Assembly (NCBI GenBank): GCA_017654855.1 | Contig: CM030338.1 | Location: 1,798,001 to 1,862,000 of the forward strand | DNA from: Podospora anserina | Taxonomy: Eukaryota | DNA length: 64,000 nucleotides | Direction: 5' to 3' | Shown: positions 5,028 to 7,867 of the stretch, piece after piece | How positions within the stretch are numbered: the stretch's first letter is position 1 | Layout: each line of letters begins with the position of its first letter | Notes under the pieces: model-generated | Seen by the model: the letters and a program-made list of their open reading frames with translations, nothing else | Databases searched by the model: none | What the model was told of the DNA's origin: nothing | Position numbers and translations under genes: made by a program

Positions 5028-5726
5028 GGTGAATATGGGGACAAGGCCGCCCCAATGTCACGACGAGAGAAAACAGGAGTCGTCGCCCGTCACGCAGGCA
5101 ATCGCGAAGTCGAGCTCAACAATCAGGGGCCGTCAATCGATGGAGGAAGACAAGAGCCGAGATGCCTTGACACTTGACAGGGTGACGACGTGTGGGGTAT
5201 CACTTTGTAAGTGGAAATCGAGCTTCATCCGCAGAAGGTGTAGCCAGAAGACTCTATAAATCAGTATACCAGCCGAACAGAACCATGGCAGGTTTAGACT
5301 TTGGCTTTTTCAAAGTGTTGCGCAAGCCGCCGTTATGAGTGTAGGCTTGGAGGAATCACAAGACCGAGTACCACCAGCCTGCACCTGCTGTCGGCCACTG
5401 GGCATCACTGCACCACTGGCGCTTGACGTCGACGGTTCTCCCACTAAGAAGCACAGACCTCGCAGCTGACAGTTTGTTCGAGGTTGAATTTGATAGGTGC
5501 ACGCCTCACCCAAGTGGCCGCACCCCCAAAATCAAGGCCCGTCCTCATTGGCGCAGGCAAACCCTACTCCACTTTTGTACACCCGGAGCCCACCAAGATT
5601 CAAAAAAGCAGTGTGCAGGTCGAATTTCCCCTCTGAGAAAAGTTTGGTGAACACCGCGATCAGGCCTACCCTCAACCTCCAGCAACCACCGAAATCCCGT
5701 AGGTCGCTCAGTACCAAACCGACATC

Positions 5727-6704
5727 ATGGCTGTTCCCGGCACTCAGATGTAAGTCGAGAGAATTCCCGTCGTTTGAACCATCTTCAATTCGGCCATATT
5801 CGACGGCAGAGAGAGAGAGAGGGAGAGAGTCTGGAGGAGGGGAATCTGGAGATGGACGGCTTTCTGAAAACTCTCGAGGAGGCTTCATGGGCAAAGCTCA
5901 AAAATTGGGAACAATGGCTGACTTGTCTGTGTCTGCAGCTCCAAGCGGAGAAAGTTCGTCGCTGACGGTGTCTTCTACGCCGAGTTGAACGAGTTCTTCC
6001 AGCGCGAGTTGGCCGAGGAGGGCTACTCCGGCGTCGAGGTCCGCGTCACTCCCACCGTTACCGACATCATCATCCGCGCCACCCACACCCAGGAGGTTCT
6101 CGGTGAGCAGGGTCGCCGCATCCGCGAGCTCACCTCCCTCATCCAGAAGCGCTTCAAGTTCCCCGAGAACTCGGTCTCCCTCTACGCCGCCAAGGTCCAG
6201 AACCGTGGTCTCTCCGCCGTCGCTCAGTGCGAGTCCCTCCGCTACAAGCTCCTCAACGGTCTTGCCGTTCGCCGTGCTTGCTATGGTGTCCTCCGCTTCA
6301 TCATGGAGTCCGGCGCCAAGGGCTGCGAGGTCGTCGTTTCCGGCAAGCTCCGCGCTGCTCGCGCCAAGTCCATGAAGTTCACGGACGGCTTCATGATCCA
6401 CTCCGGTCAGCCCGCTAAGGACTTCATCGACAGCGCCACCCGCCACGTTCTCCTCCGCCAGGGTGTCCTTGGTATCAAGGTCAAGATCATGCGCGGCTCT
6501 GACCCCGAGGGCAAGGCCGGCCCCCAGAAGTCTCTCCCCGACGCCGTCACCATCATTGACCCCAAGGAGGAGACCCCCGTCGTTCAGCCTATGAGCCAGG
6601 ACTACGGTGCTAAGGCCGCCGCTGCCCAGGCTGCTGCTGAGGCTGCCCGCCAGGAGGAGCAGGCTGGTGCTGAGGAGGAGGCTGCCCCTGCCGCTGAGCA
6701 ATAG
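5727..6704 (+). CDS. RPS3: 40S ribosomal protein S3 (uS3)
   Basis: Exon 1 5727-5749, intron 5750-5938 (GTAAGT..CAG), then [40 protein letters not shown]; strong high-expression codon bias; TAG at 6702-6704. Confidence 0.98.
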
Positions 6705-7488
6705 GATGCTCGCGGTAGAGGTGCTGGACAATCTCCCAAGATACCCCAGTCCTACGTCGATCTGGGTGCTGAGCCTGCGCCCAACAACAGCGATGACTGG
6801 TAAATCGGAAAGGGGAGCGTTGTGGCAGGGATGAGGAGATCTTTCTTTTGGGCGCGCCACACGCTCATCGGTATGGTTGCAGGAATGGGTTTACGGCGTC
6901 AACTTTGAGCATATTGCATTGAGTCTGCAAAAGGGAAAACGGATGGGTTGTTGCTTTATGGAGGGGTGGCTTTGTAACTATCTACAGAACCCATGGACAA
7001 GGGCAGCAACGTCAAGATGATCCTGATAACACACCGGGAATAGACCTCCTGAACAAAGTGAACGGGCTCTCTTGTGTGACATGCCGGTGGTGAAGGGCGC
7101 CAGATGTATTTTGTTTTAACAATGTGATACCACTTGTTTTCTTTGCCTCGATGATATCTGGGTGGTTGGCTCTGGACGTTGGTACAACTAAACCAACCAC
7201 ACGACTATTTTCCATTCCCACCAACCCCTTTTTTGCCAGCCAGCTTTGGCTGGCGATTTTCTAGAGAATAATATATGCAATGATATCATAGCATATAGGA
7301 AGCTTCAATCTGGTGCGACAAAGACAATATTCTCGACACATCACATACCAGAACACCACACTGTAGGCCACCACCCTTTTATCCCCGCCCTCTATACCGA
7401 TAGCATGGCATGGTATATATTGCACCTGAAGATATCCATCAGCAGTTAACAGTCAACTTTCACACAACCAGAAAAAACCCAAGGGAGC

Positions 7489-7489
<1 letters not shown>

Positions 7490-7524
<35 letters not shown>
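7490..7524 (+). repeat. Poly(A) homopolymer, about 35 nt
   Basis: Direct read; lies between the convergent 3' ends of RPS3 and the NIPA gene. Confidence 0.9.
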
Positions 7525-7527
<3 letters not shown>

Positions 7528-7867
7528 GATCAAAAAGCTTTGTTGTTAAAACATTGAATAACCCACCCAACCTCCCGGTAGTCCACCCATTGAACAAAGA
7601 TATCCATTAACACAATATTTCCCATTGATTTATGCACCCTCAAACGCCATTTTGTGACGCCCCCCTTTCCCCTCTCCCGCCCCCAAGAAGAAAAAGCCAC
7701 CATATATATATCTCTCTCTCTTTAAAGATCCAATGAATGCCACAAGAGACAACTGTGTGATAATAGTAGCAGCAAACCATGTAGTAAATACATCCCAAAG
7801 AAAAACCAAAGAAAAACCAAAGAAAAAGCAAATCTCACCCCCCCCCCTCCAACCCCCATCATCATCA

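Follow-up and report, generated by a model that had tools for sequence, protein, structure and literature searches.

The gene for the ribosomal protein uS3 (RPS3) of the fungus Podospora anserina ends in a stop codon that lies in the loop of an RNA hairpin and is followed, in frame, by a 32-codon extension whose last codon before the next stop specifies tryptophan. The gene lies on the forward strand of a 64,000-nucleotide stretch (assembly GCA_017654855.1, contig CM030338.1, positions 1,798,001 to 1,862,000; hereafter the window, whose numbering is used throughout). Comparison with the uS3 genes of related fungi indicates that the extension is selected, translated protein-coding sequence and that the hairpin is a selected RNA element, conserved by structure rather than by sequence, because codon-position periodicity runs up to the second stop and ends there, a Trp codon directly before that stop recurs across lineages, and the hairpin arms match each other within lineages. 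A longer form of uS3 is probably made, and A-to-I editing of the stop codon is the route that we favor. An original prediction, made from the letters of the window by themselves, had pointed to the hairpin and the extension and had read them as the makings of a stage-specific uS3 on a specialised ribosome; its observation is confirmed and much strengthened, and its interpretation is partly supported. The elements concerned are as follows.

6680..6725, forward strand: hairpin with the stop codon in its loop, from RNA folding; core 6688-6718 with 12 base pairs, loop 6701-6706 (AUAGGA)
6702..6704, forward strand: canonical uS3 stop codon TAG, from the sequence; A6703 is the candidate A-to-I site, at which UAG would become UIG and be read as Trp
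6705..6800, forward strand: acidic, Gly/Ser/Ala/Pro-rich extension, 32 codons in frame with uS3, with Asp-Asp-Trp as its last residues (TGG at 6798-6800)
6801..6803, forward strand: second stop codon TAA, directly 3' of the terminal Trp codon (TGGTAA)

Phyletic distribution of the extension

Relatives were gathered by scanning metagenome contigs with the C-terminal 133 residues of uS3, which gave 440 encoding stretches; the best 80 of these 440, all of them on metagenome contigs, form the sample. The gene end is readable in 78 of the 80 loci (L008 runs off its contig and L070 is without the anchor motif), and six loci that are identical to another around the stop (L004, L011, L048, L066, L072 and L073) are left out of the counts. 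An in-group was picked by the feature, namely TAG followed by G together with a long in-frame extension, and holds, beside the window, L001, L002, L003, L005, L006, L012, L014, L016, L020, L024 and L041; its 12 rows are counted as 11 lineages, with L005 and L006 taken as one. A quick maximum-likelihood tree of the last ~450 nucleotides (nt) of the coding sequence (CDS) in 62 rows recovers a core group made of the window, L001, L002, L003, L005, L006, L012, L016 and L020 (Shimodaira-Hasegawa-like approximate likelihood-ratio support, SH-aLRT, 92), which amounts to eight lineages. The feature is present in all nine rows of this core, no core locus being without it, and every member has TAG then G and an in-frame extension of 23-46 codons. 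L024 and L041 branch one level outside the core, beside two loci without the feature, and L014 is placed elsewhere in the tree.

Across the in-group as a whole the extensions range from 23 to 81 codons, and all 12 rows have a TAG stop with G as the next base. The 61 outgroup rows end in TAG 33 times, in TAA 15 times and in TGA 13 times.

A coding extension with a fixed tryptophan end

The extension in the window reads DARGRG...NNSDDW and runs in frame, as had been claimed, up to the TAA at 6801-6803; with Trp at the stop position the long form would have 295 amino acids, 33 of them extra. An open frame of 32 codons would by itself attract little notice: frame +1 outlasts it in the window, at 42 codons, and in most relatives; the long +1 frame appears to be a product of the C/T-rich third positions in frame 0. 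What sets frame 0 apart is its composition. When the extensions of the 11 lineages are pooled (1221 nt), base frequencies differ strongly among the three codon positions (χ-squared 161.8, p=2.5e-32), with G at position 1 at a frequency of 0.48 and A at position 3 at 0.08, as against 0.50 and 0.05 in the uS3 CDS; the 99 nt past the second stop show no periodicity in the same lineages (χ-squared 1.7, p=0.94). The core lineages taken by themselves repeat the pattern (χ-squared 123.0, p=3.8e-24 in the extensions; 1.4, p=0.97 after the second stop). As a control, 14 outgroup extension open reading frames (ORFs) of at least 20 codons (1227 nt) are without periodicity (χ-squared 5.2, p=0.52), so that an open frame does not by itself create the signal. 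The earlier description of the downstream frame as coding-like is therefore borne out by periodicity and by conservation of the frame across related fungi, and the argument from preferred codons on which it had leaned, weak for a single sequence that also contains AGA, GGA, CAA and ATA, holds when the 11 lineages are pooled. A codon-usage score trained on the uS3 CDS of the other lineages gives frame 0 the top value in every one of the 11. A separate ORF in frame +1, starting at ATG 6706 (42 codons, 6706-6834), was considered and ruled out, because this ATG is missing in L001, L002, L003, L005, L012 and L020 and frame 0 scores best in every lineage.

The extension peptides themselves are poorly conserved, with 10-40% identity to that of the window, and their commonest residues are Gly, Ser, Ala, Pro, Glu and Asp. 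The window extension matched no Pfam family, and an AlphaFold2 model of a 287-residue read-through form, built on a 22-row alignment, has a mean predicted local distance difference test score (pLDDT) of 49.1, too low for use. The extension is probably disordered.

Set against this loose conservation is the last residue. Of the 11 distinct in-group lineages, 8 have an extension that closes with TGG-TAR (a Trp codon, then TAA or TAG), an end seen in 0 of 56 outgroup extensions (Fisher p=2.5e-8); the core group contributes 7 of its 8 lineages. The eight lineages with this end are the window, L002, L003/L004, L005/L006, L012, L016, L020 and L041, with extensions of 32, 36, 30, 28, 24, 46, 23 and 81 codons respectively; the motif lies 66, 69, 81, 87, 93, 105, 135 or 240 nt past the stop, and always in frame 0. 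Since the eight lengths all differ and are all in frame, the distance from the first stop to the second has changed by whole codons every time. The residue preceding the terminal Trp is Asp, Gly or, in L041 only, Gln.

A hairpin around the stop codon conserved by structure

The hairpin at 6688-6718 folds as it had originally been drawn, with 12 pairs, one bulged U, one G-U pair and a 6-nt loop, AUAGGA, that holds the TAG at 6702-6704. Its minimum free energy (MFE) is -18.2 kcal/mol (z = -4.54), and none of 200 dinucleotide shuffles is equally stable. It is retained in both the MFE and the centroid folds of a 131-nt context, the whole of which is not unusually stable (z = -0.53), and in a 51-nt context it grows to 6680-6725, with a probability of 1.00 that A6703 is unpaired. 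For 9 of the 11 lineages the best fold leaves the stop codon inside the loop of a hairpin, with loops of 6-10 nt and helices of 8-13 pairs.

The arm sequences vary among lineages yet pair within each of them. RNAalifold, run on the ungapped alignment of the 11 stop regions, found no consensus structure because the helices sit in different registers, and arm-swap folding was therefore used: each 5' arm was folded with each 3' arm, allowing pairs across the loop only, and the sums of native and chimeric energies were compared by permutation. In the 11 lineages, arms of one lineage fold at -14.2 kcal/mol on average and arms of different lineages at -9.6 kcal/mol, and the native sum is reached by 1 of 50000 permutations (arms 18/24) or 4 of 50000 (arms 14/20). 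All 40320 permutations of the eight core lineages can be enumerated, and 355 (arms 18/24) or 16 (arms 14/20) of them reach the native sum. Kinship among the lineages makes this test conservative; without the across-loop constraint it is weaker, 32 of 20000 permutations being as good. The covarying stem for which the original prediction had proposed an alignment thus appears as arms that match within lineages. The constrained hairpins are also more stable in the in-group (mean -14.2) than in the 61 outgroup loci (mean -5.3; p=2.5e-5), and they remain so against the 13 outgroup loci of similar G+C content (mean -9.3; p=0.016).

The context of A6703 as a candidate editing site

In fungi, Tad2/Tad3 together with Ame1 performs A-to-I editing of mRNA during the sexual stage, a process common among Sordariomycetes (PMC11087585, PMC11156358; papers are cited here for the passages that our literature search covered). 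Edited adenosines are preferentially preceded by U at -1 and C or U at -2, and followed by A or G at +1, G at +2 and A or G at +3 and +4 (PMC9600606; preferences are also given in PMC11156358); 62% of the sites lie in predicted hairpin loops, and stabler hairpins are edited more (PMC9600606). In Fusarium graminearum editing turns UAG into a Trp codon in 323 stop-loss genes (PMC4817773). The original prediction had remarked that the context of A6703 in the window, A-U-[A]-G-G-A, fits the editing preference; the next base is U. In each of the 11 in-group lineages the four positions from -1 to +3 all have a preferred base: U before the adenosine, then two G and a purine after it. Over six positions the in-group sites match the preference at four or five.

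How the stop codon may be passed

Our reading, which we hold with moderate confidence, is that the uS3 mRNA of the window fungus and its relatives carries a built-in switch for a longer form, the stop being passed by A-to-I editing. In sexual tissue Tad2/Tad3, which acts on U-preceded adenosines in hairpin loops, would together with its cofactor Ame1 deaminate A6703; the ribosome would then decode UIG as Trp and continue to the TAA at 6801, giving uS3 with 33 additional residues. To judge from what has been found for the tail of yeast uS3, this extension could be carried by assembled ribosomes. At a guess, its Trp-ended acidic tail might act as a short docking motif or else as a stability signal.

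A number of observations weigh against this account. The in-group was selected by the feature itself, and only the core group is independently defined, by the tree. Three lineages are without the Trp end, namely L024, which has Tyr, L014, which has Gly-Arg, and L001. In the last of these (L001:1894-2000) an in-frame TAA stands directly before a remnant of the Asp-Asp-Trp motif in which the Trp codon is now Cys; L001 is the closest relative of the window by protein identity and has one of the two weakest hairpins, and it looks like a single case of joint decay of extension and hairpin. The hairpin is weak in 2 of the 11 lineages, L001 and L020, and the single-sequence z-score is about 0 in L001, L002, L005, L020 and L041. 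Within the editing context, position -2 is A in 10 of the 11 lineages and G in L014, both of them depleted bases there, and the U at +4 of the window is likewise a depleted base. Context alone, moreover, is no mark of a functional stop-loss site, because six outgroup loci (L051, L053, L057, L058, L060 and L061) that read TAC TAG GAG followed by TAG or TGA have the preferred context at six of six positions and an extension of one codon. Of 18 runs guessed to be RNA, all available as contigs, four (X1, X2, X3 and X8) were compared with the window, and their contigs have A at 6703; since contigs hide minor variants, and the developmental stage of the runs is unspecified, this speaks neither for nor against editing. 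A search of the protein collection for an extended uS3, whether encoded as such in the genome or derived from an edited transcript, yielded 35 matches, none of which spans the extension, and a profile of the 11 tails with their extensions gave 3 matches among longer proteins, none of them extended; both negatives are weak evidence.

Coding conservation between the two stops is common to stop-loss editing and to readthrough and cannot separate them, and programmed readthrough without editing, in which a near-cognate tRNA would decode UAG, possibly in all tissues, and place Gln, Tyr or Lys at the stop, would explain the constraint on the extension equally well. Functional readthrough extensions, with peroxisomal targeting, are known in fungi, and 10 of the 11 lineages have CAA as their last sense codon; adenines immediately 5' of a stop favour readthrough in yeast. 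Leaky stop contexts, however, favour C after the stop, a purine there making for efficient termination; programmed readthrough is marked by a leaky context, for example UGA then C or UAG-CARYYA, and/or by a stimulatory structure that starts a few nt 3' of the stop. The base after the uS3 stop is G in all 12 rows, the stop is always TAG and never the leakier TGA, and the hairpin encloses the stop instead of following it; with one arm upstream in the CDS it would be melted by a ribosome that has reached the stop and could hardly serve as a downstream roadblock. Stop-loss editing of the sexual-stage, ADAT type is the better match for a UAG that lies in a hairpin loop with U before its adenosine and G, G and A after it, and we regard readthrough as unlikely. 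We give still less credence, indeed very little, to the notion that nothing past the TAG is translated, the extension being a leftover or chance ORF and the hairpin an element of mRNA stability, localisation or 3'-end formation. In its favor, the long form is absent from the RNA contigs and from the protein collection searched, a strongly conserved non-coding block lies in the same 3' untranslated region (UTR), and frame +1 is open even longer than frame 0; the last point, though, is what the third-position composition of frame 0 would lead one to expect, and a purely non-coding history leaves unaccounted a frame 0 periodicity that ends at the second stop and has no equal in outgroup ORFs of the same length, as well as eight distances from TAG to TGG-TAR that differ by multiples of three.

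By analogy with Dbf2, the long form might also be made by editing and yet serve as a destabilising tail that lowers the supply of uS3, and with it 40S production, in sexual development. Levels of green fluorescent protein (GFP) fell 5- to 38-fold with the extension of Dbf2 and with six further stop-loss extensions, and such extensions are disordered, of biased composition and poorly conserved in sequence (PMC13123824), all of which could be said of a uS3 extension with 10-40% identity and a wealth of Gly, Ser, Ala, Pro, Glu and Asp. A generic degron nevertheless leaves unexplained why the last residue should be Trp in eight lineages whose extensions measure 23-81 codons, and why an aromatic C-terminus should be native to uS3 in 20 of 54 distinct outgroup tails; we consider it improbable, somewhat more so than readthrough. 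On this balance we infer, at about the same moderate level of confidence as for the switch as a whole, that the stop is passed by RNA editing.

A possible role of the tail on the ribosome

In yeast, residues 190-240 of uS3 form a tail that follows the solvent face of the 40S subunit as far as WD repeat 4 of Asc1/RACK1, and yeast uS3 truncated to residue 217 or 211 is viable (PMC5689013). Since the tail is solvent-exposed and its end dispensable, 33 extra residues should be tolerated on the ribosome. The 54 distinct outgroup tails fall into 20 that end in Phe, Tyr or Trp (L052 among them being probably misread across an intron), 13 more with an aromatic residue in the last six positions and 21 with none. 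The canonical tails of the in-group are without such an aromatic residue in 10 of 11 cases, and several outgroup tails end in ...EQQY or ...EQW, with the aromatic residue approximately where the in-group has its TAG, the codon that editing would change to Trp. On this comparison, an acidic tail that ends in an aromatic residue may be a recurrent working feature of fungal uS3, one that the in-group would display only on demand. As an observation in its own right, an aromatic native end (Tyr, Phe and, once, Trp) follows an acidic, Pro/Ala-rich tail in many distant fungi, the loci surveyed for it being L051, L053-L061, L063-L069 and L071-L078.

More tentatively, and as a possibility that we would not put first, the C-terminus of uS3 in Sordariales-type fungi might constitute a functional, editing-gated module, with a short tail in vegetative ribosomes and a long, Trp-ended one in sexual-stage or ascospore ribosomes, where it would recruit or block a partner. 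The gated tail would be acidic, 24-47 residues long (82 in L041), and placed on the 40S head beside RACK1, near the mRNA entry; it may supply, when needed, the kind of aromatic C-terminus that uS3 of many other fungi has natively. If true, this would amount to a developmentally switched, editing-made specialised ribosome.

Relation to known systems and significance

Freitag in 2012 and Stiebler in 2014 reportedly described fungal readthrough that adds peroxisomal targeting signals, from leaky UGA contexts and with an end in a type 1 peroxisomal targeting signal (PTS1) tripeptide. These cases and uS3 have in common a short conserved extension, and in the peroxisomal cases the last residues are functional; uS3 differs in having TAG then G in a hairpin loop and a [D/G]-W end in place of UGA and PTS1.

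Closer parallels are offered by stop-loss editing. With the sites of Tad2/Tad3-Ame1 (PMC4817773, PMC9600606, PMC11087585, PMC11156358) the uS3 site shares U at -1, purines at +1 and +3, G at +2, a stable hairpin loop and the change of UAG to Trp; it departs from the preferred sites in the base at -2 and, in the window, at +4. White collar 1 (WC-1) of Sordaria macrospora is, in the same order Sordariales, a protein extended through a UAG-to-UGG change, as we propose for uS3, and peptides for 15 stop-loss transcripts of this fungus prove that their long forms are translated (PMC6794485); the WC-1 extension has 131 amino acids and a predicted domain, whereas that of uS3 has 33 and no family match. 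DBF2, for which stop-loss editing is described in F. graminearum and other Sordariomycetes, shares with uS3 the hairpin-embedded TAG, the preference for TAG, and an extension that is disordered, biased in composition, poorly conserved and kept open (PMC13123824). For DBF2 both editing and destabilisation have been shown by experiment, whereas uS3 is a core ribosomal gene, known in this respect from sequence and set apart by its fixed last Trp.

Our literature search, which left supplementary site lists aside, found no paper tying uS3/RPS3 to editing or to a readthrough extension in fungi, and the main-text passages covered of PMC4817773, PMC5381528, PMC6794485, PMC13123824, PMC11156358, PMC9600606 and PMC11087585 do not name it; the site may be listed without comment in supplementary editing tables. 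Stop-loss editing as a class is well known; the conservation of the uS3 extension, its Trp end and the matching of the hairpin arms are not described in the main-text passages covered. Whether stop-loss editing is generally adaptive was still being argued in an exchange of 2026 (PMC13123824, PMC13684035, PMC13684032), to which uS3 would add a target with unusually clear signs of purifying selection on the extension itself. The interest of the case lies in this target being a core ribosomal protein with an added tail under clear selection, and in the joint retention, across at least eight lineages, of the hairpin-loop TAG switch, the frame of the extension and the residue at its very end. Ribosome heterogeneity is a debated subject, with few cases in which a defined molecular switch meets a defined change in a core protein; here a single adenosine would decide between two forms of uS3, a protein that stands at the mRNA entry channel and whose tail reaches RACK1.

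Gene structure and other features of the uS3 mRNA

The remaining features of the gene and its mRNA are these.

5727..5749, forward strand: uS3/RPS3 exon 1, from ATG 5727-5729, encoding MAVPGTQ plus 2 nt of an Ile codon; read from the sequence
5750..5938, forward strand: uS3 intron of 189 nt, GT..AG, from the splice joint in RNA contigs
5939..6701, forward strand: uS3 exon 2 as far as the codon before the stop, CAA (Gln), with KH_2, Ribosomal_S3_C and an Ala/Glu-rich tail
6849..6975, forward strand: conserved 3'UTR block after the extension, from two alignments; its anchor motifs occur in core-group loci only
7050..7057, forward strand: poly(A) site of the uS3 mRNA, one of possibly several, from the end of an X3 contig

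The canonical protein has 262 amino acids and is near-identical to fungal 40S ribosomal protein S3, with both uS3 domains present in order: in the frame 5940-6701 Pfam finds KH_2 (PF07650, E = 1.6e-14) and Ribosomal_S3_C (PF00189, E = 1.9e-26). The nearest named homologues are 40S ribosomal protein S3 of Collariella sp. and of Lasiosphaeria miniovina, both Sordariales, and the N-terminus encoded by exon 1 agrees with the uS3 homologues P0002 and P0004. The splice joint 5749 to 5939, which skips 189 nt bounded by GT..AG, is found in contigs of three of the four RNA runs (X1, X3 and X8), and exon 2 including its stop spans 5939-6704.

Alternative splicing across the stop was considered as well and is ruled out: the X1, X3 and X8 records are unbroken from 5939 to 7057 or beyond 7100, that of X2 is continuous over 6535-7100, and no splice joint lies near the stop in contigs of any of the four runs. 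Because the contigs continue to 7057 or past 7100, the mature mRNA carries the stop, the extension and a long 3'UTR in a single stretch that is not spliced. The X3 contig departs from the genome at 7057 and continues as AAAAAAAA, and the X1 and X8 contigs extend beyond 7100.

The 3'UTR block at 6849-6975, about 125 nt long, is better conserved in sequence than the extension, and this in the core group only, with counterparts at matching places in L001, L002, L003, L005, L012, L016 and L020. Its consensus structure is weak (-5.67 kcal/mol, with 2 of 20 pairs compensatory), and Rfam gave no match at E <= 1 within 5400-7600. It may be an element of the uS3 mRNA that binds a protein or acts at the 3' end.

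Some minor observations may be added. A long genomic A run lies at 7480-7515, about 450 nt past the poly(A) site at 7057; the X1 contig, judged by its length, seems to reach approximately this place, and either a longer 3'UTR or read-on into the next feature is possible there. The X2 contigs break at 6535-6564, one small record going on into adapter-like letters, a library artefact. A GA-rich simple repeat occupies 5809-5830 within the uS3 intron, and 5801-5834 was skipped as a repeat when the contigs were mapped.

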